NCBI GenBank assembly: GCA_003560545.1
Contig: PWLK01000081.1
Location: forward strand, 1-32,135
Origin: Candidatus Woesearchaeota archaeon
Lineage (GTDB): Archaea; Nanobdellota; Nanobdellia; Woesearchaeales; 21-14-0-10-32-9
Length of the DNA stretch: 32,135 bases
Direction of reading: 5' to 3'
Shown here in pieces: positions 604 to 32,119 of the stretch (positions within the stretch are counted from its first letter, which is position 1; every line of letters begins with the position of its first letter). A program made the translations under genes and the position numbers. The notes under the pieces are model-generated. The model saw only the letters and a program-made list of their open reading frames with translations. It did no database searches and had not been told where the DNA came from.

Positions 604-3108
604 ATGGCTGATAAAAAGAAAAGCTTTTGGTCCAAGCACAAAGTCTTGATTTCAGTAACCACGATACTATTCCTTGCATTCCTCTTTGTGTCAGCAGGGA
701 TTTACTTTAGGGTAAGCTTCTTGCTGCACGAGGAAATAATCATACAGGTAAGCCCCAGGTATTCCTCCCTGGAAGTAGAAAGAAATGAGTACAAAGAACA
801 AATGATAAGCGTGGAAGTCCAGAGCACGTGGATGTGCAACGCTGAATGCAACTACGAATTAAGAAATATTGGCACAGGAGAAATACTGGCCAGCAAAAAC
901 ATAACTGTTACCGGAAGCGAAAAAACGGAGCTGGAACATTGGTTTGGCACGGATGAATACGGGTACGGCCAGGATTATTATACGTACACAGTAACATGCA
1001 AAGCTATTCCTACAGTGCTATGCTCCGCTGAAAACCCTGAGAGAAAAAGGGTTTCTGTGATCACAGTCAACTACGAGCCCTCCAGAGATGAAAAAGAAGC
1101 AGAGGAGTTCCTGAGAGAAAGGTTTCAAAACCTGACTGCGCAGCTGAACACAGCTGACACCAACATTCTGACAGGCGAAGCCAGGCTAGAACAAATCAGC
1201 ATTAAGAAGGATGACTTGGAAGATCATGCGAATGACAGCAAGCAATTACTGAACGAAATAAGGTCAAGCATTGGAATTATCACTGGATCCTGGAACGAGA
1301 GTAACTTTCTGGGTGCAAAGCAAAATTACGAAGAGCTGAATGTATCAGGGGAAGCAGAAGAACTTGCCCGTACCACGAATACTTTTCTTGAAATGATATC
1401 TGAAAGGATAGAAACACATAACCAGGCAGTGCTGGTTTTAGACGAGATATACGATGACAGGGCTTTCACGAACAACTTGTTCGAGACAAGCAAAGCTAAC
1501 AATGATTTAACCCGTTTATTCCTGGATGCAACAACAAGTTATAATAGCTTAACCAAGAGTTTTAACACTGATGATTTCATTAGTTACGAGGAACTCATAA
1601 GCGATCTAAGCATGGTTAACGATTCGTTCAACGACGCAAAAGCCGAGTACGTTGAGGCTTATTTAAACAGCACGGAGGACTACTTAGACTTGTTCTTAGG
1701 AGAGTTCTCTGCTTGTATAAGCAACGCAGCTGGTTGTGAGCCTGAAGAGATTAGCAGCGTACTCCGCGAAAACGTATCTGTTACTGAAAGTTTTAGGCAT
1801 ACGAATAACAAATGCCTTACTGCAAGCAACGTGCTCGGCGAAACGAGCAGGATAACAAGTGAAAAACAAGAGGTTCTCGGGCAAATAGACAGCCAGATGA
1901 GAGCTGAAGCAGAAAAAGAAAAAAACAAGGTGATGCTTTCGGTAATCCTGAGGTATGAAGAAGAATTAATAGAGGGAGAACTTGAAAATACTTCTATGAT
2001 GGGAAGACTTCAAGAATACAAAGAGAATTTTGAAAGAGAATTAAACGAAACAACTATCACGAGTAACTACTACCCTTTTTCGTATAATGAATCGTTAAGA
2101 GAGTACTTTACACCAATTGATATGAGCAGGGTTGAACTATTAGATGAAAAATGCCTGCCTCCTAATGAAACACTTTTCTTCGAGGAACCATTGCGGGACC
2201 TGAAAGAGCAGCCTTATGATGTGGTTGAAAGCAACAAGACATATTCTTTGCCAGAGGTACTTGCTATGTGCTGCGCTTACAATGAATGCAGGCCTTGTTG
2301 TGAGCATGGATGTGAAAAGAATAATCCGTTAGTATTATTGCATGGCCACGCATTTATCGGAAGGCATACCCCTGAATACTCTGCGGATGCGTTCAACGAA
2401 ATGCTGGACTTTTTCTCAGAAGAGAAATTGTACCTTCCAATGTCAACTCTTACTCCTGAGAAAAGGTTTCTTGAAACAAGAACCGGTGACCTCGGAAGAA
2501 ATCATAAGCCTATAGCTATGAAAGCAACTTATTATTATATTGCTTACGTTGACGGCCCTGGCTACACCACTATTATAAGCAAGAGCGAGAACATAGACAC
2601 GTATGCTATACGGCTTGAAGAGATGATAACCTGGCTGAAAAATGCTACTGGCTCAGAAGAAGTTGATATAGTCGCGCATTCCATGGGAGGCTTAGTAGTC
2701 AGGAGGTACTTGCAAGTGTTCGGGGAGGAGAGTGTTGACAGGGTTATCATGATAGGCACTCCTAACCATGGGATTACGCCTGTGATTGGAAGGCTTTGCA
2801 GCGTGTTCGGAGAAGAAAGGGAGTGCAGGGACATGGAAGAGGGAAGCGCGTTTATGAATACTTTAAACCAGCCAGAGCATATTCCTGGGAACGTGGAATT
2901 GCACACGATAAGAGGGGAAGGATGCCGTATGGAAGGGGGAACCGGGGACGGGATAGTGTTAGGTGAACGCGTCCCATTGGATTACGCTGAAAACCATGTT
3001 ATCAGGAGGGATTGTGATATCTTACAAGAAAACATGCATACAGACATGCTGAGCCCGGAGAAATACCCTGAGGTATACGAACTGATAACAAGGATACTTC
3101 TAAGATAA
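604..3108 (+). CDS. Membrane-anchored, probably extracellular Cys-rich/coiled-coil protein with a C-terminal alpha/beta-hydrolase (lipase class 2 / PGAP1-like) domain
   Basis: N-terminal TM helix (VLISVTTILFLAFLFVSAGIYF). Many N-x-S/T sequons. Cys cluster CCAYNECRPCCEHGCE. Nucleophile elbow VDIVAHSMGGLVVRRYL, then IGTPNHG, GDGIV and HTDML as candidate Ser/Asp/His triad. Confidence 0.7.
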   Translation: MADKKKSFWSKHKVLISVTTILFLAFLFVSAGIYFRVSFLLHEEIIIQVSPRYSSLEVERNEYKEQMISVEVQSTWMCNAECNYELRNIGTGEILASKNITVTGSEKTELEHWFGTDEYGYGQDYYTYTVTCKAIPTVLCSAENPERKRVSVITVNYEPSRDEKEAEEFLRERFQNLTAQLNTADTNILTGEARLEQISIKKDDLEDHANDSKQLLNEIRSSIGIITGSWNESNFLGAKQNYEELNVSGEAEELARTTNTFLEMISERIETHNQAVLVLDEIYDDRAFTNNLFETSKANNDLTRLFLDATTSYNSLTKSFNTDDFISYEELISDLSMVNDSFNDAKAEYVEAYLNSTEDYLDLFLGEFSACISNAAGCEPEEISSVLRENVSVTESFRHTNNKCLTASNVLGETSRITSEKQEVLGQIDSQMRAEAEKEKNKVMLSVILRYEEELIEGELENTSMMGRLQEYKENFERELNETTITSNYYPFSYNESLREYFTPIDMSRVELLDEKCLPPNETLFFEEPLRDLKEQPYDVVESNKTYSLPEVLAMCCAYNECRPCCEHGCEKNNPLVLLHGHAFIGRHTPEYSADAFNEMLDFFSEEKLYLPMSTLTPEKRFLETRTGDLGRNHKPIAMKATYYYIAYVDGPGYTTIISKSENIDTYAIRLEEMITWLKNATGSEEVDIVAHSMGGLVVRRYLQVFGEESVDRVIMIGTPNHGITPVIGRLCSVFGEERECRDMEEGSAFMNTLNQPEHIPGNVELHTIRGEGCRMEGGTGDGIVLGERVPLDYAENHVIRRDCDILQENMHTDMLSPEKYPEVYELITRILLR

Positions 3109-4691: not shown

Positions 4692-5192
4692 TTATTCTCG
4701 CACTGTAGCCGTAATCGTGCCAGAGGCCGTACTATCAAAAGAACCTCCTGACCTCCTATGGTCAAACTCAAAAGCAAGCCTTGCTTTCTCGCCAGGAGAT
4801 GCTTGGACGTCATCTACATCGCAGTGCAGGAAGAACCTTCCACCATCAGCAATCCTGCCATCAGTTATTTCATCAACGGCACCAGCCTCGCTATAAAAAC
4901 CACAAGAACCACTTACGATAGAGTCCCCAGCTATGTTTACATCTCCACCACTAAGTTCTCTGGTACCACCCATGTTGTTAATAAGGCTAATATCAACAGA
5001 ATTCTCAGTTACCTCGAATTCTTCACATGTAAATCCGCTTGTAATTGAACAGCTGTCGGGGATTAACTGCTGAGGGTTTAAAACGCCGAAGTATGCTAAT
5101 GCTCCGATCATAACCAATATAACCATAAACGCCCAACCGTATGTTGTTAAGAACTCCAGGGCTGCTTGGCCTTTTCTTTGTTTAATAACCAT
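4692..5192 (-). CDS. Protein with a class III signal peptide (archaeal type IV pilin-like), paralog B
   Basis: MVIKQRKG|QAALEFLTTYGWAFMVILVMIGALAYF. GAGGTG Shine-Dalgarno 9 nt upstream. LIPDSCSITSGFTCEEFEVT aligns with LVPDSCTFTEDFICEEFQVT of paralog A. Confidence 0.7.
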   Translation of the reverse strand: MVIKQRKGQAALEFLTTYGWAFMVILVMIGALAYFGVLNPQQLIPDSCSITSGFTCEEFEVTENSVDISLINNMGGTRELSGGDVNIAGDSIVSGSCGFYSEAGAVDEITDGRIADGGRFFLHCDVDDVQASPGEKARLAFEFDHRRSGGSFDSTASGTITATVRE

Positions 5193-26403: not shown

Positions 26404-28209
26404 TTAAAACTTGCTTTTGAGCTTAATCTTAGGATAAATGCCCAGGGATTTGAACTCATCAAGCAACAATTTGAATGCATAACTAACTTCTATGTCACTC
26501 ATCTCGGAGTCCTCCCCGTAAACAGGGGACATTGGCTTGTTGTTCTTCCTCGCATCATAATACCCTACTAATCCTGATTTCTCGCATACAGGGACAACGA
26601 CTTGGTCGGAGTCAAACCTTTCCTTCAGTGTAAGTGATGCCCCGTGGGCTACAAAGGTATCCTTCTCCATTTCTCCAAGCCTTAAACCGCCTTCCTTAGC
26701 CCTACCCTCAGTGGGCTGCCTTGTTAATAGCTGTATAGGACCTCTGGCCCTGCTATGCAATTTGTTAGCAACCATGTGTTTCAATTTCAAGTAGTACATG
26801 TTGCCTACAAAAATCCTGACATCGTATTTCTCGCCTGTAATACCATTATACATTGTTTCAGAGCCATCATCCCTGAAACCCATTTCTAATAAGTCCTTCC
26901 TAATATCTGATTCTTCCTCGGATTCGAACATGGTAGCATCAATATATCTTCCTGTAAGGCTCCCGGTTTTCCCTGCTAATAACTCCATCATATGGGAAAC
27001 AGTCATCCTAGTAGGAATACCATGAGGGTTGAACAATATGTCTGGCTTCAAACCTGTCGAGGTAAACGGGACATCTTCTTCTGGGACGACGAGGCTTATA
27101 ACTCCTTTCTGACCGTGCCTGGAAGTGAACTTATCACCTATCTCAGGAATCCTTTGCTCTCTAAGCCTTACCTGTACGAGCTTGTTTCCCTCTTCGTTTT
27201 CAGTTAAGGTAACAAAATCAACGATTCCTTTCTCGCCGTGTTTCAAAGCCATGCTGGACTCCCTTCTTGAGTCAGAAGCCAAGCTGTACTCATCCATGCT
27301 GCTCAAAAACCTTGGCGGGCTTACCTTGCCAATCACAACATCTCCTTCTTTTACACCTGCTTCAGGGTATATAATACCGTCTTCTTCAAGGAACCTGTAC
27401 TCATGCTCAGACCTATAACCCCTGACTTCCTTGTCAGGCATTGTAACTTCATCCATCAACCCACCTGAATACCTTAACTCTTCTGAAACAACAGGCCTGA
27501 AATAAGTAGACCTGCCAAGGCCTCGGTCAACACTGCCTTTGTTTATAATTATAGCGTCGTCCATGTTATAACCCTTGTAAGTCAGGACTGCAACAATCAC
27601 GTTTTGTCCAGAAGGGTGCTTGTCATAATCAGACACGGAATGAGCAACACTTTGCACGATAGGATAATGAGGGTAATGCAGTACGCTAACATCCATATCC
27701 ATCCTTACAAGGAAGTTAGCAGCGTAAAACCCAACGGCTTGCTTCTGGTTCTTCGCACCCTGATTCAAGCGTACACCTTGGTTGTAATTCCCGAAAGGAA
27801 CCATCGTGGTAATAAGCCCTAATAAGTCAAGGCTGCTTATCTCCATGTGCGTGTGATCAGAAGTTACATCTTCCTCGGTAAAAGCAACTAAGGCATTCTC
27901 TTCTTCTGTAGCATCAAGGTACTCTATTACGCCTTGCTTTAACAAGTCAGACCAGGAAATCTCTTTCTTTTCAAGCTGCTGGATGTGTTTCTCTGTAAGC
28001 AAAGGCTTTCCTTCCTTGACCACTATTAAAGGCCTTGTAGATCTTCCCCTGCTTGTTTCAATCAAAACTTTTTCTTCTTCCTGTGAATAAGCGATGTTAA
28101 CAGAATCTGAAACTCTGCCCATCCTTCTTTCTGATACTACTTGATCCACGAAATCTTTTGCGTTCTTAACAGTTCCAATGTACTTGTTATCCATGAATAC
28201 GTCAGTCAT
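26404..28209 (-). CDS. rpoB1: DNA-directed RNA polymerase subunit B' (Rpo2C, C-terminal half of B)
   Basis: GDKFTSRHGQKGV, HGIPTRMTV, YYLKLKHMV..K.H.RARGP...LTRQP.EGR...GG.R.GEME. ATGA overlap with the B'' stop. Confidence 0.95.
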   Translation of the reverse strand: MTDVFMDNKYIGTVKNAKDFVDQVVSERRMGRVSDSVNIAYSQEEEKVLIETSRGRSTRPLIVVKEGKPLLTEKHIQQLEKKEISWSDLLKQGVIEYLDATEEENALVAFTEEDVTSDHTHMEISSLDLLGLITTMVPFGNYNQGVRLNQGAKNQKQAVGFYAANFLVRMDMDVSVLHYPHYPIVQSVAHSVSDYDKHPSGQNVIVAVLTYKGYNMDDAIIINKGSVDRGLGRSTYFRPVVSEELRYSGGLMDEVTMPDKEVRGYRSEHEYRFLEEDGIIYPEAGVKEGDVVIGKVSPPRFLSSMDEYSLASDSRRESSMALKHGEKGIVDFVTLTENEEGNKLVQVRLREQRIPEIGDKFTSRHGQKGVISLVVPEEDVPFTSTGLKPDILFNPHGIPTRMTVSHMMELLAGKTGSLTGRYIDATMFESEEESDIRKDLLEMGFRDDGSETMYNGITGEKYDVRIFVGNMYYLKLKHMVANKLHSRARGPIQLLTRQPTEGRAKEGGLRLGEMEKDTFVAHGASLTLKERFDSDQVVVPVCEKSGLVGYYDARKNNKPMSPVYGEDSEMSDIEVSYAFKLLLDEFKSLGIYPKIKLKSKF

Positions 28210-29720
28210 TTTGCCATCACCGGTTCAAAACCAAAACCTTTCAGTTTTCCGATTAATTCTTCTTCATCAACACCTCTTGTTACTTTTGCAAGCAACGCAA
28301 GGTTCTTCCTTAATCCTATATTAGTACCTTCAGGGGTTTCGCTCATGCACAAGCGACCCATATGCGTAGGGTGCAACGCCCTGGCTTCAAAGTTTTCCTG
28401 GCTTGCACTCAACGGGCTTATAACCCTTTGAAGCGCTGAAAGCATCTGAATGTAGTTAAGCCTTTCAATCCTCTGGCTTATACCTTTCCTGTTCCCACTC
28501 CAATTCCCCGTAGCCATGCTGCTGTAAATCCTCTGTGTTAAGAGCTTCTCCCTGATAATAACTTTGATGCTTGGGAACTTCCCTCTCTTCACAATTCTCT
28601 GGAAGTTATACAGCAAGTCCCCTATTAGTACCTTGATGTTAACCCTGAACAAGTCAGCCAACAAGTCCCCAGCCATTTTAAGCCTCTTGTTTGAATAATG
28701 ATCTTTATCTGCCACCGGAAGCTCTTTATTGGAAACCTTAATGTAGTCTTTCAGGTACTTGCAAAGATTAAGGGCTTTAGCGTGCCTTGCCTCGCTTGTA
28801 ATACCAATGTGAGGGAGCAAGTACTTGTCAAGTATTTCCTTAAGCCTTTCAATGCGTATCTCCTTTGACTGAGTTATTCCTATCTTCTTCGCAATATAAT
28901 CCAGAGCATCTTCCTCTGTCTTAATATCAACGAACTCGTAGAGATTGATAAATATTTCAGAGCTGTTAGGAAGGTCAACAATCCTCATAATATCCTCATC
29001 CTTAGTAACCCCTAATGCTTTTATGATAACAACCAAAGGAATCCTTTTAACCCTTGTAAAAGTCAGGTAGAAAATCTCATCCCTTAATTTCTCCATTTGG
29101 TGAGGGATCTTATAAGAACCTTGCTCTGAGAAAATCTTTCCGAGGTAATCACTGATACCCGTAGCCTGTGCCTCAACCAAGAACTTGTTTGGAGCCAGGT
29201 CTTCAACGGAGACAACCACTTTCTCGGTGCCATTAATAATAAAATACCCTCCTGGATCATCCGGGTCCTCCCCTGCCTTGATAAGATCCTCCCTACCCAT
29301 CTTGCTCAAATGGCAATACTTGCTCTTAAGCATGATAGGGATGCTGCCAATCTGGGTTGTAAAAGTTTCTTTTTGCATGCCATTCACATGTGCTGAAACT
29401 TCGAGGTACATAGGAGCAGAATAAGAAAGCTTTCTAAGCCTTGCCTCAGAGGGAAGCAAGTCCCTTTTAGAACCGTCAGCTTCGATAATTTCAGGCTTGG
29501 ACACACTGATCTTATCCAGGCGAATCTTGAACTCTTCAACATTCGTAGGAATAATAGTGGGTTCTATCTCTTTGTTTTCGTTTATAATTTTCTGCAATTC
29601 TTCTTCTACGAACTTGTTGAACGCATCAATATCTGACTGCACCAACGAATTCTCTTCAAAGTATTTCTTCAGCAAAAGCTTTGAAGTAGTCATATTAAGG
29701 TTTATAGGCTGATTACTCAT
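28206..29720 (-). CDS. rpoB2: DNA-directed RNA polymerase subunit B'' (Rpo2N, N-terminal half of B)
   Basis: QSDIDAFNKFV, PSEARLRKLSYSAPMYL, GGYFIINGTEKVVV, SQRIERLNY..LS.L.RV. ATG 29720 overlaps the rpoH end by 8 nt. Confidence 0.95.
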   Translation of the reverse strand: MSNQPINLNMTTSKLLLKKYFEENSLVQSDIDAFNKFVEEELQKIINENKEIEPTIIPTNVEEFKIRLDKISVSKPEIIEADGSKRDLLPSEARLRKLSYSAPMYLEVSAHVNGMQKETFTTQIGSIPIMLKSKYCHLSKMGREDLIKAGEDPDDPGGYFIINGTEKVVVSVEDLAPNKFLVEAQATGISDYLGKIFSEQGSYKIPHQMEKLRDEIFYLTFTRVKRIPLVVIIKALGVTKDEDIMRIVDLPNSSEIFINLYEFVDIKTEEDALDYIAKKIGITQSKEIRIERLKEILDKYLLPHIGITSEARHAKALNLCKYLKDYIKVSNKELPVADKDHYSNKRLKMAGDLLADLFRVNIKVLIGDLLYNFQRIVKRGKFPSIKVIIREKLLTQRIYSSMATGNWSGNRKGISQRIERLNYIQMLSALQRVISPLSASQENFEARALHPTHMGRLCMSETPEGTNIGLRKNLALLAKVTRGVDEEELIGKLKGFGFEPVMAK

Positions 29721-30042
29721 TAATAACACCCCTGTAAAACACAGATTCACCCGCGGTAGGGCTCTTTCTTTTTATCATAATAATATCATTCTCCCTAGCA
29801 TCCAAATGCCTTATAGCGGGATCAGATATGAAAATCTTAGGAAGCTCCTTAGGAGTCACGCTGTACCTCTTATACAACTCCTCCTTTTCCTTATCTGAAA
29901 GCTTTATATGCTCTGGTACGAGATCGTGCTCGACTTTAGAAGTATCCTTTACACGTGCTTTCTTCTTCTTTGCAGCTTTCTTGACAGCTTTTTTAGAAGC
30001 GACAGATTTTTTCTTTCCCTGGGTTTCTTTTTTCTTAGCCAT
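29713..30042 (-). CDS. rpoH: DNA-directed RNA polymerase subunit H (Rpo5) with a Lys-rich N-terminal extension
   Basis: HDLVPEHIKLSDKEKEELYKRY...LPKIFISDPAIRHL...GDIIMIKRKSPTAGES.FYR-like core. ATG 30042 with GGAGGGG upstream. Confidence 0.9.
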   Translation of the reverse strand: MAKKKETQGKKKSVASKKAVKKAAKKKKARVKDTSKVEHDLVPEHIKLSDKEKEELYKRYSVTPKELPKIFISDPAIRHLDARENDIIMIKRKSPTAGESVFYRGVINE

Positions 30043-30193: not shown

Positions 30194-30268
30194 CGCCCTG
30201 GCCGGGATTTGAACCCGGGTCGAAGCCTCGACAGGGCTTCATGATAGGCCAGACTACACTACCAAGGC
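30194..30268 (-). tRNA. tRNA-Asp (anticodon GUC)
   Basis: GCCTTGG/CCAGGGC acceptor, AAGCC-CT GTC GA-GGCTT, CCGGG-TTCAAAT-CCCGG, discriminator G. 75 nt. Confidence 0.9.
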
Positions 30269-30459
30269 ATCACAAATGGAAATATGACTGGTTTTTCCTG
30301 GTCGAACTCTGAAGAAAAACTTTTGCATTCCCATTTTACTGTTATAACCCAAAGTGCACGGCACTGAACCTTCCACGAAGTTTTGGTGAAACTCAGTTGA
30401 TTTATAAACCTTGCGGTAACGATTTCCTCCATGAAATAAAAAGAATCCCTCGGGGGAGA

Positions 30460-30492
30460 CTTTCAGCCAACACCACTTGCATGGAACCTGGA
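30460..30492 (-). other. tRNA-Tyr intron 2 (33 nt, non-canonical position 59/60 in the T-loop)
   Basis: The bulge-helix-bulge motif is visible by eye: T-stem GGGAG:CTCCC, 3-nt bulge AG|T, 4-bp TTCA:TGAA, 3-nt bulge AA|T, then CCAG:TTGG. Confidence 0.7.
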
Positions 30493-30514
30493 TTTGAACT
30501 CCCAACCTCTCGGT

Positions 30515-30565
30515 CTCAGCTGACCTTGTTTCATTCATACCCTGAAGGGCTAGTCGCAAGGATTT
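30515..30565 (-). other. tRNA-Tyr intron 1 (51 nt, canonical position 37/38)
   Basis: It interrupts CTGTAG|A. Both junctions read AG|A. Intron +5..+9 CCTTG pairs with -14..-10 CAAGG. The central 4-bp helix has one T:T mismatch, so this is a relaxed bulge-helix-bulge motif. Confidence 0.7.
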
Positions 30566-30630
30566 CTACAGCCGAGCGCTCTACCGTTGAGCTACCGAGG
30601 GAAACCTATTCAGAACAGGATAAATAATTG

Positions 30631-30664: not shown

Positions 30665-32119
30665 TTATTCGTTTACGAATAACGGCTTAGCAGAGAACAC
30701 CATGCGCTCTTTTCCGTTCTTATTTTCAAATTTAGCTCTTGCTTTGGGAAGGGTAAGGTTTCCTATAATCTTAAGCTTTGCTTTCGCCCTATAAGTAAGA
30801 ATCCTTTCTTCTAAAGAGTCAAGCGAGTCAAGGTTCCAGTACAAGAGAGTTCCTTTCCTAGTGGTTTTTGTAACCTTCGTAGGCTTCAAAGATCCAAGGT
30901 GGTGGGAGTCTGAAATATCAATAATGCCGGGAAGCTTATCGTTAACAGACAACCCATGGATTTGCTTGCCAGACCTGTTCTTTACAAAAATCTTTATTTT
31001 CAACTCTGAAACGCCGTGCTCGTCCTTGCCAAGGACGCTTGCTTCTTTCATTATAACAATAGGGCTCCTGAACAAGTAATACGCTACTACAAGTATTATG
31101 ACCAAAGCTATGATTATTACCAGGACCCTATAATTAGTCTTAACAAGTATGTCAAATTCTTCTGCGGGCTCAAGGGAAGGAGCCCATTGGTAATGCGCTC
31201 TTCCATCAATTCTTACAACTTCCGCTTCAGGAGTTGTACTGGTAAAAATCCTTTTATACCAAGGCGCAGGAATATCTATCTCTGTAATCCTTTCGAAGTT
31301 TCCTTTGTTTGTTACAGTTATTTCATCTTTTGTAAGGAACCAATTGGTCTTGGACTCGTAATCGGTGTCGGTATCGACAATCCTGTCAATTGTCAGGCGG
31401 GGGAAGTTCTCTGTTATAACTCGTTCGGTTATAGGATAATAAGCATTCACCCTGATAGTGTATTCACCTGGTGCCTGGTGAGGATTAAGATCGAACTGCA
31501 TGTACACAGTTTTTTCCTGTGTAGGCCCCAGGGAGACTTCCATTTGCTGTTCTTCGAATAGCTGGCTTGAAGCTGTAATGTAGAGTTCTGAGATGTTAAG
31601 CTGGTTCCTGTTCCTTAACTGTACTGGTAAGCTTAAAGGCTCTCGCGGGTCGTGAGCTTCGGGCAGGCTTACATCCATTGCCACACTAGGCACGAATCCG
31701 GCTGGAGCGCCATCAGCTGTTATACTGATGGGGACTCTTATTGTTTCCATTGAGCCATCCTGCCTGCTCTGAATCCTTATGTTCACAGAGTAAGAACCAA
31801 AGGAAACCCCTGACCTAGGGATTATTGTAAGAATAAAGCTTTCTTCTGAGTTCGCAGGAATTGTAACCCTTGTTGGAGTGGTGGTTATAATCCAGTTAAT
31901 GGAATCAGGCGTTGAAAGGCGTATATCCATGGACTGGTCGTAATCCTCGAAGTTCTCAATTGTTACTTCGTACTCCGTGAACCCTCCAGGCATTGTCCTG
32001 GATGTTATGGTTTCTACGCTGGCAGAGAAAGAAGCTGCTGCGCTGCCAACAAACAATAACACTGCTAGTGATGATATGACGAACAAAGAAAGCAGTTTAG
32101 CCTTGTTTTTTCCTGTCAT
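30665..32119 (-). CDS. Secreted/membrane surface protein with repeated beta-sandwich (CARDB/NEW3/DUF11-like) domains, a central TM helix and a further C-terminal beta domain
   Basis: Signal peptide MTGKNKAKLLSLFVISSLAVLLFVGSAAA. Domain signatures ..YEVTIENFED..W.ITT..V.IPANSEE.F.LTI.P..G..FGSYSV.I and ..PGEYTIRVNAYY. TM VLVIIIALVIILVVAYYLF at about residue 335. Confidence 0.6.
   Translation of the reverse strand: MTGKNKAKLLSLFVISSLAVLLFVGSAAASFSASVETITSRTMPGGFTEYEVTIENFEDYDQSMDIRLSTPDSINWIITTTPTRVTIPANSEESFILTIIPRSGVSFGSYSVNIRIQSRQDGSMETIRVPISITADGAPAGFVPSVAMDVSLPEAHDPREPLSLPVQLRNRNQLNISELYITASSQLFEEQQMEVSLGPTQEKTVYMQFDLNPHQAPGEYTIRVNAYYPITERVITENFPRLTIDRIVDTDTDYESKTNWFLTKDEITVTNKGNFERITEIDIPAPWYKRIFTSTTPEAEVVRIDGRAHYQWAPSLEPAEEFDILVKTNYRVLVIIIALVIILVVAYYLFRSPIVIMKEASVLGKDEHGVSELKIKIFVKNRSGKQIHGLSVNDKLPGIIDISDSHHLGSLKPTKVTKTTRKGTLLYWNLDSLDSLEERILTYRAKAKLKIIGNLTLPKARAKFENKNGKERMVFSAKPLFVNE

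Follow-up and report, generated by a model that had tools for sequence, protein, structure and literature searches.

Archaea, among them the Thermoproteales, are known to possess tRNA genes with several introns, including non-canonical bulge-helix-bulge (BHB) introns (Marck & Grosjean, 2003; Sugahara, 2007, 2008; as cited in PMC4090602 and PMC6379350). In DPANN archaea with an alpha4-type splicing endonuclease (EndA), one Woesearchaeote included, tRNA genes have likewise been found disrupted (Kaneta et al., 2018; PMC5829648), and in Euryarchaeota the intron of pre-tRNA-Trp houses a box C/D guide RNA (Clouet d'Orval, 2001; Singh, 2004; as summarised in PMC7994747). Here we describe a locus on contig PWLK01000081.1 of a Woesearchaeota (DPANN) archaeon that is very probably a working tRNA-Tyr(GUA) gene, the sole one found in this 83% complete genome. 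Its two introns, intron 1 at the canonical position 37/38 and intron 2 at position 59/60 in the T-loop, would be removed by EndA and the exons joined by RtcB. The gene lies on the minus strand, at 30601-30446 of the window (the whole 32,135-nt stretch that was analyzed), and corresponds to a precursor of 156 nt. The host genome, G000 in the coordinates below, is a 915-kb metagenome-assembled genome of 113 contigs with 0.1% contamination.

The locus resembles the multi-intron tRNA genes of Thermoproteales in having two introns of the protein-spliced kind in one gene, at 37/38 and in the T-loop, in building a splice motif of the hBHBh' form from a tRNA arm and the intron, and in being missed by standard finders. 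It differs from them in its host, a DPANN archaeon that is mesophile-like and has only about 1 Mb of genome, and in its EndA, which is a single-unit alpha4-like protein and not an alpha2beta2 enzyme with the Crenarchaea-specific loop. With the DPANN set of Kaneta et al. (2018) it shares the superphylum, the enzyme type and a tRNA set that stays incomplete until non-canonical introns are searched for. In that set, however, tRNA gene disruption is tied to the L3 (Nanoarchaea/ARMAN-2) loop of EndA, an insertion that is absent from the EndA described here and from those of six relatives, and the 59/60 intron found here is an almost strict BHB. Multi-intron tRNAs and the disruption of DPANN tRNA genes are already published (Kaneta et al., 2018; PMC5829648), and the mechanism discussed here is not new.

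Compared with a canonical 37/38 intron, intron 2 is a geometric copy placed in the other 7-nt loop: loop bases 1-4 pair with the 3' end of the intron, and the intron is inserted after loop base 6 and before loop base 7. Its place in the T-loop sets it apart, as T54-C56 are masked and the D-loop/T-loop elbow cannot form before its removal.

The interrupted tRNA-Tyr gene and its T-loop intron

Read contiguously, the T-arm of the locus is GGGAG-TTCAAAT-CCAGG, which is unable to pair, as an earlier note on this DNA had pointed out. ARAGORN made no tRNA call on the raw locus, nor after removal of intron 1 alone. When intron 2 was removed, the program called a tRNA-Tyr(gta) with a 51-nt intron, and when both introns were removed it returned a perfect 72-nt cloverleaf with C1:G72, A73 and the anticodon GTA, just as the note had expected from taking out a 51-nt and a 33-nt insert. 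C1:G72 together with A73 is the archaeal/eukaryotic tyrosine identity set. Every boundary of both introns can shift by one identical base; the predicted spliced junctions are ...GGGAGTTCAAA joined to TCTCCCCCGAGGGA and ...GGCTGTAG joined to ACCGAG. The note's warning that standard callers would miss the gene was also justified: default ARAGORN and Rfam at the gathering score report only the adjoining tRNA-Lys(UUU) and tRNA-Asp(GUC), and the raw locus scores 17.5 bits with the Rfam tRNA model, whose cut-off is 29. At a permissive E-value, Rfam shows nothing but a weak tRNA match between 30255 and 30700. The spurious open reading frame (ORF) that had been noticed over the gene is a 101-aa frame at 30254-30559 on the minus strand in the ORF list.

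To put this in silico splicing on a genome-wide footing, strict BHB motifs were collected on both strands, spliced in silico, and the products passed to ARAGORN. The real genome yielded 53,619 BHB candidates and 22 junction-spanning tRNA calls at 14 loci, tRNA-Tyr included, whereas the reversed-genome control yielded 53,248 candidates and 3 junction-spanning calls at one spurious locus. Because the two genomes are about equal in candidates and differ in loci, BHB-like motifs alone are common, but a BHB motif whose removal makes a tRNA is not.

Unconstrained minimum free energy (MFE) folds of the 156-nt precursor and of the isolated T-arm both contain a BHB motif at intron 2, the same motif that the note had drawn around this insert. 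The elements follow each other in the order GGGAG plus TTCA, AAU bulge, CCAG...UUGG, an unpaired C, UGAA, AGU bulge and CUCCC. The T-stem GGGAG:CUCCC forms the outer helix h and CCAG:UUGG the inner helix h', and the central helix H consists of 4 bp between UUCA (tRNA positions 54-57) and UGAA (intron bases n-5 to n-2, 30465-30462). Each strand has one 3-nt bulge, A58 A59|U on the 5' side and A G|U60 on the 3' side. The intron itself is laid out as U, CCAG (h'), an inner hairpin, UUGG (h'), the unpaired C, UGAA and AG. With the cut predicted after the second bulge base, intron 2 is placed at 59/60.

We searched 40 related genomes for orthologous loci at the DNA level and aligned 20 orthologues. 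Two genomes of the same genus, G001 and G002, match the entire 156 nt at 90% and 85% identity, respectively. An insert sits exactly between TTCAAA and TCTCC in 11 of the 20 (G000, G001, G002, G010, G016, G017, G008, G015, G013, G003, and G021), and the T-loop is uninterrupted in the other nine (G004, G007, G014, G005, G011, G006, G035, G027, and G036). The 11 inserts range from 20 to 87 nt, have unrelated interiors and mostly end in TGAAAG or TGAAAA. Filled and empty sites coexist in three of the four genera of the family, with the host genus filled in three of three genomes. The family thus offers a clean comparative data set on the gain and loss of T-loop introns, as the same site is filled or empty within single genera.

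In a wider set of 123 tRNA-Tyr loci, which includes matches from a genome collection, parsing revealed 73 loci without a T-loop insert and 36 with one, while 14 remained unparsed, mostly loci with further introns in the variable loop or the D-arm. The parser imposes T-stem pairing on the 36 introns but makes no use of the H helix, so that this helix serves as an independent test. H is paired in 88% of the cells, and all four of its pairs show double changes (54:n-2, U-A 18 and C-G 7; 57:n-5, A-U 12 and G-C 9). Its covariation score was reached by 0 of 500 shuffles, and sliding the partner by one column lowered the pairing from 95% to 58-66%. At the level of sequence, covariation in H combined with a drifting interior is the signature of a spliced intron and not of a broken gene. 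As a candidate substrate of EndA, intron 2 has the hBHBh' form, restores a tRNA when removed, shows covariation and is accompanied by genes for the splicing enzymes. The note's assignment of the second insert to a 59/60 BHB intron is hence borne out by in silico splicing, by presence or absence at the exact site in orthologues and by central-helix covariation.

Among the loci of the wider set, L047, L048, L053, L145, and L127 are tRNA-Tyr genes of Woesearchaeota and Lokiarchaeota with further inserts in the variable loop or in the D-arm and 5' part. Judged by these sequences, tRNA-Tyr is a recurrent target of multiple introns across lineages. A Methanolobus psychrotolerans match and the bacterial matches of the collection scan were rejected as chance matches that are not tRNAs.

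Table 1. Features of the tRNA-Tyr(GUA) locus, in window coordinates and in the order of the predicted transcript.
Feature	Position	Strand	Description	Evidence
TATA-like box TTTTATAAAA	30631..30640	-	GAAAC before it; about 30-39 nt upstream of tRNA position 1	Read from sequence
Exon 1	30566..30601	-	36 nt, tRNA positions 1-37: CCCTCGG TA GCTC AACGGTA GAGC G CTCGG CTGTAG; acceptor 5' strand CCCTCGG, D-arm, anticodon stem 5' strand and loop through G37, anticodon GTA	Conserved in 20 orthologues
Intron 1	30515..30565	-	51 nt, canonical 37/38 position	ARAGORN intron call; in 20/20 orthologues
K-turn-like module in intron 1	30531..30555	-	GA / C-UAGCCC-UUCA-GGGUAU-G hairpin / AAU / GA	
Exon 2	30493..30514	-	22 nt: A CCGAG AGGTT GGGAG TTCAAA; A38, anticodon stem 3' strand CCGAG, variable loop AGGTT, T-stem 5' strand GGGAG, T-loop TTCAAA (54-59)	
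5' strand of intron 2 BHB	30495..30503	-	GGGAG (h), then TTCA (H); bulge A58 A59|U next	MFE fold, covariation
Intron 2	30460..30492	-	33 nt, T-loop position 59/60	MFE fold, orthologue comparison, H-helix covariation
Exon 3	30446..30459	-	14 nt: T CTCCC CCGAGGG A; T60, T-stem 3' strand CTCCC, acceptor 3' strand CCGAGGG, discriminator A73; CCA not encoded	
Oligo-T run TTCTTTTTATTT	30434..30445	-	Directly after A73	Read from sequence

Intron 1 and its K-turn-like module

Intron 1 is kept with a conserved sequence in all 20 orthologues and is an ancient, always-retained intron of tRNA-Tyr. Its outer helix and its 3' bulge (A G|A38) are well formed. The central helix is composed of C32:G, U33.U (U.C in relatives), G34:C and U35.G, and thus contains a fixed U33.pyrimidine mismatch. 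A strict hBHBh' is not formed: neither manual trials of several registers nor constrained folding gave an ideal one. A relaxed motif fits, and both the position and the ARAGORN call are canonical.

Within intron 1 lies a conserved module with a covarying hairpin that resembles a kink-turn (K-turn; Table 1). GAC and RAUGA are invariant in intron 1 of the 20 orthologues. In a set of 103 distinct introns, the closing pair forms in 92% and stem pairs 4-7 form in 74-81%, through a wide variety of base pairs. Exactly 8 nt separate the second GA from an invariant CAGCYG in 100 of these 103 introns. This CAGCYG can pair with bases 29-34 of the anticodon arm. Measured against a K-turn, the elements GA, C...G, RAU, and GA are (near-)invariant, stem positions 2-3 are often non-Watson-Crick, and the strands beyond G.A differ in length (1x2 or 2x3). 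When the genome collection was scanned for the pattern, introns of this type turned up in many Woesearchaeota and Nanoarchaeota, in a Bathyarchaeote and in records labelled uncultured Methanosarcinales; Asgard archaea have a variant with AA in place of GA on one strand. Similar GA-hairpin-GAUGA modules are present in the host genome in the introns of tRNA-Trp, tRNA-Leu(CAG), tRNA-Leu(UAG), and a candidate tRNA-Cys. Our literature search found no paper describing a K-turn-like intron 1 of tRNA-Tyr.

Like the box C/D intron of pre-tRNA-Trp, intron 1 combines a K-turn-type GA/RAUGA pair with a canonical tRNA intron. Unlike it, intron 1 has only one K-turn-like element and no terminal pair of C box and D box, its 3' CUGA is unconserved, and it leaves no free guide of 10-12 nt. 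A box C/D guide was rejected for these reasons: there is a single GA/RAUGA pair, the 3' CUGA varies (CCGA, CUGU, CCGU) with the last two intron bases free to change, and the stretch upstream of the 5' GA is consumed by h'. An H/ACA-like reading was also set aside, as a conserved ACA box is absent and there is only half a pocket.

L7Ae is encoded by G001 and G002, the two other genomes of the genus, and by most relatives (100-118 bits). In the host genome, 83% of which is assembled, L7Ae was not found; the only candidate is an 87-aa protein with a weaker match, which is probably L30e. Binding of L7Ae to the intron 1 module is putative. We tentatively consider that intron 1 may be an L7Ae-bound ribonucleoprotein module, which would either hold the imperfect BHB in a form cleavable by a narrow-specificity enzyme or present U35/G37 for modification before splicing. 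The latter could apply by analogy with the intron-dependent pseudouridine 35 of eukaryotic tRNA-Tyr. Always retained, equipped with a K-turn-like module and an imperfect splice motif, and occurring in a lineage whose EndA has no known specificity loops, intron 1 may be more unusual than the T-loop intron.

Splicing enzymes, proposed pathway and rival explanations

The host genome encodes a single EndA gene (contig C90; L001:1474-2091, minus strand). On the question of subunit architecture, to which the earlier note had drawn attention, the product is one unit of 205 aa that matches PF01974 with 100.5 bits and, over its full length, TIGR00324 with 121.8 bits. Its closest solved relatives are the catalytic subunit of Nanoarchaeum equitans and the homotetramer of Methanocaldococcus jannaschii, and it aligns almost gap-free to the M. 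jannaschii alpha4 enzyme. The loop near the catalytic His, YDRGVKPGEDHARW, has the same length as YERGANIDKEHSVY of M. jannaschii, whereas N. equitans has 6 extra residues (KKGKRSER) at this place. This lysine-rich loop of N. equitans was defined in PMC3488258 and equals the L3 loop of Kaneta et al. (2018; PMC5829648). The six-residue loop is missing from the EndA described here, in agreement with six EndAs of related genomes, and we found no L1-, L2- or L3-type insertion relative to the M. jannaschii protein. Its sequence suggests a plain alpha4 enzyme, with a lysine-rich tail of variable length at the N-terminus, and none of the broad-specificity forms (alpha2beta2 with CSL, epsilon2 with ASL, or an enzyme with the NEQ/L3 loop). 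This extension comprises about 33 aa (MPAKKKSAKKKKAKEE...KTKKKKIK) and varies from 0 to about 50 aa among relatives; it is possible that it acts as an extra RNA-binding element. The RtcB ligase is encoded on contig C40 (567.9 bits).

In the pathway that we infer from the observed architecture, its conservation and the presence of these enzymes, transcription would start from the TATA-like box and run to the oligo-T run after A73, producing the 156-nt precursor plus a short leader. EndA would then cut both introns at their BHB motifs, with the cut sites of intron 2 in its two 3-nt bulges, RtcB would ligate the three exons, and trimming of the ends would be followed by CCA addition. The TATA-like box is likely an archaeal promoter, and AAACTTTTATAAAA is found at equal distance upstream in G001 and G007. 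The oligo-T run is likely an archaeal terminator, and T-rich tracts also trail tRNA-Tyr in orthologues. As long as intron 2 is present, it would hide T54-A57 in its central helix, and the D-loop/T-loop elbow would form only after its removal. With T54-A57 masked, recognition of intron 1 cannot use the mature tRNA body unless the T-loop intron leaves first.

Several points weigh against this interpretation. Splicing of the precursor, including the order of its steps, is predicted from sequence. Intron 2 departs from an ideal hBHBh' in one place, the unpaired C (30466) opposite the 5' bulge, and in the set of 36 introns only the H helix tests the motif independently. The central helix of intron 1, CUGU:GCUG, carries the U33.U mismatch, and its 5' site lies in an asymmetric loop of 4-6 nt, a motif that a strict alpha4-type EndA is not expected to favor. 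Finally, the missing part of the host genome could hold a second, intron-less tRNA-Tyr.

This last point gives some room to the view that an insertion broke the T-arm and left a decaying pseudogene, with the functional copy in the unassembled 17%, and the sub-threshold Rfam score of the raw locus is in line with decay. Nevertheless, the exons still hold all the bases of a perfect cloverleaf, a conserved and covarying BHB motif borders the insert, and the promoter and terminator signals are retained. An intron-less tRNA-Tyr elsewhere, which the earlier note had named as part of a possible refutation, was not detected in the host genome by ARAGORN with introns allowed (-i), by Rfam or by the BHB-aware scan. 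The two-intron gene is also kept in two more genomes of the genus, and a second match to exon 1 is absent both from the host genome and from G001, which is 99% complete. We consider a pseudogene highly improbable. It is also conceivable that the 33-nt insert stays in, giving a tRNA-Tyr with an expanded T-arm, or that it is processed by something other than EndA, since the EndA present is of a type described as narrow in specificity. An insert left in place, however, would sequester T54-A57 and prevent the elbow from forming. Moreover, the interiors and lengths (15-87 nt) of such inserts drift while the BHB elements alone are conserved, which is what a spliced intron would leave behind, and a strict BHB is precisely the substrate of narrow-specificity EndAs (PMC6379350). 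This explanation appears extremely improbable.

A third possibility accepts the gene as real and spliced but calls for a broad-specificity endonuclease, which would depend on a beta subunit that escaped detection or on a new specificity determinant, for example the lysine-rich tail of EndA. According to PMC6379350 and PMC5829648, alpha4 enzymes cut strict BHB motifs, and relaxed motifs are cut efficiently only by alpha2beta2 and epsilon2 enzymes. The imperfect BHB of intron 1, the 8/9 intron of the candidate tRNA-Cys with an outer helix of only 2 bp, the variable N-terminal extension of EndA and the link that Kaneta et al. (2018; PMC5829648) draw between disrupted DPANN tRNA genes and modified alpha4 enzymes all speak for it. 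In contrast, a phmmer search with EndA against all ORFs of the host genome revealed this one unit only, whereas in PDB the N. equitans beta subunit is picked up by the same query at 1.7e-15. Over 40 relatives, PF01974 matches in 37, with exactly one unit in all but four, and genomes that are 99-100% complete are among those with one. A second EndA subunit or a three-unit protein was rejected on these grounds, and the lack of all three loop insertions also argues against this possibility, which we regard as unlikely. The earlier note had taken the two introns to imply a broad-specificity endonuclease. This claim was not supported, as the genome has a single one-unit, M. jannaschii-like EndA without known loops, and such an enzyme is not needed for intron 2 because the near-ideal T-loop motif fits a narrow-specificity EndA. 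A lineage rich in non-canonical introns thus manages with a single-unit EndA in which none of the three published broad-specificity loops is present, and this loop-less EndA refines the published link between the loops and tRNA gene disruption.

Other interrupted tRNA genes and the genomic setting

The design of intron 2 recurs in tRNA-Pro(UGG) of the same genome (contig C36, 4761-4869, plus strand), a gene that ARAGORN misses. Its 35-nt intron (4821-4855) is also at 59/60 and has the BHB CCCGG UUCA AAC ... UGAA AGU CCGGG; here, too, a single unpaired base faces the 5' bulge. This motif is all that it shares with the T-loop intron of tRNA-Tyr, the interiors being different. Neither intron of tRNA-Tyr has another copy in the genome by blastn-short, and a mobile, repeated intron was ruled out, as searches with both tRNA-Tyr introns and the tRNA-Pro intron gave self-matches only.

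tRNA-Ser(GCU) on contig C12 stays hidden until a 64-nt BHB intron is taken out of its D-arm region (2500-2563, plus strand), and the BHB-aware scan also uncovered a tRNA-Gln(UUG) with a 21-nt intron. A T-arm-anchored search identified a candidate tRNA-Cys(GCA) on contig C79 (4976-5112, plus strand) with two inserts. The first, of about 19 nt, is near 8/9 and forms its central helix from acceptor bases 3-6, with an outer helix of 2 bp; the second is a 45-nt anticodon-loop intron containing GA-GCCA...UGGC-GAU-GA. Without a BHB-aware search the host genome seems to lack tRNA-Tyr, tRNA-Pro(UGG), tRNA-Ser(GCU) and probably tRNA-Cys. Such missed tRNAs would distort inferences on completeness and codon usage in DPANN archaea.

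Four anticodon-loop introns of the genome share a homologous block of about 70 nt (CAACGGTT(A/T)CGCTCGTTGGACGCAA..GTTTC..TTCGTTCAAGC...). They are located on contigs C79 (958-1107), C62 (10492-10744), C27 (1445-1611), and C101 (1732-1877), and the genes are tRNA-Arg(UCU), tRNA-Leu(CAG), tRNA-Ser(CGA), and a tRNA-Pyl(cta) called by ARAGORN. The block suggests a single intron family distributed among several tRNA genes; the tRNA-Pyl(cta) call is probably a mis-parse.

Beyond the tRNA-Tyr terminator a second TATA-like box, GGTTTATAAATC (30410-30399, minus strand), is kept in most relatives. The roughly 120 nt of unannotated DNA between this box and tRNA-Asp (30270-30410 of the window, minus strand) gave no Rfam match and no unusual fold (z = -0.43). 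Directly upstream of tRNA-Tyr lies an ORF of 484 aa (30665-32119, minus strand) with a signal peptide and a later transmembrane helix, to which neither Pfam nor NCBIfam has a match. The product is a surface protein and not a homing endonuclease. Adjoining the tRNA genes, RNA polymerase subunit B is split in two genes of 514 aa and 601 aa (26404-29750 of the window, minus strand) within an rpoH-rpoB-rpoA cluster.

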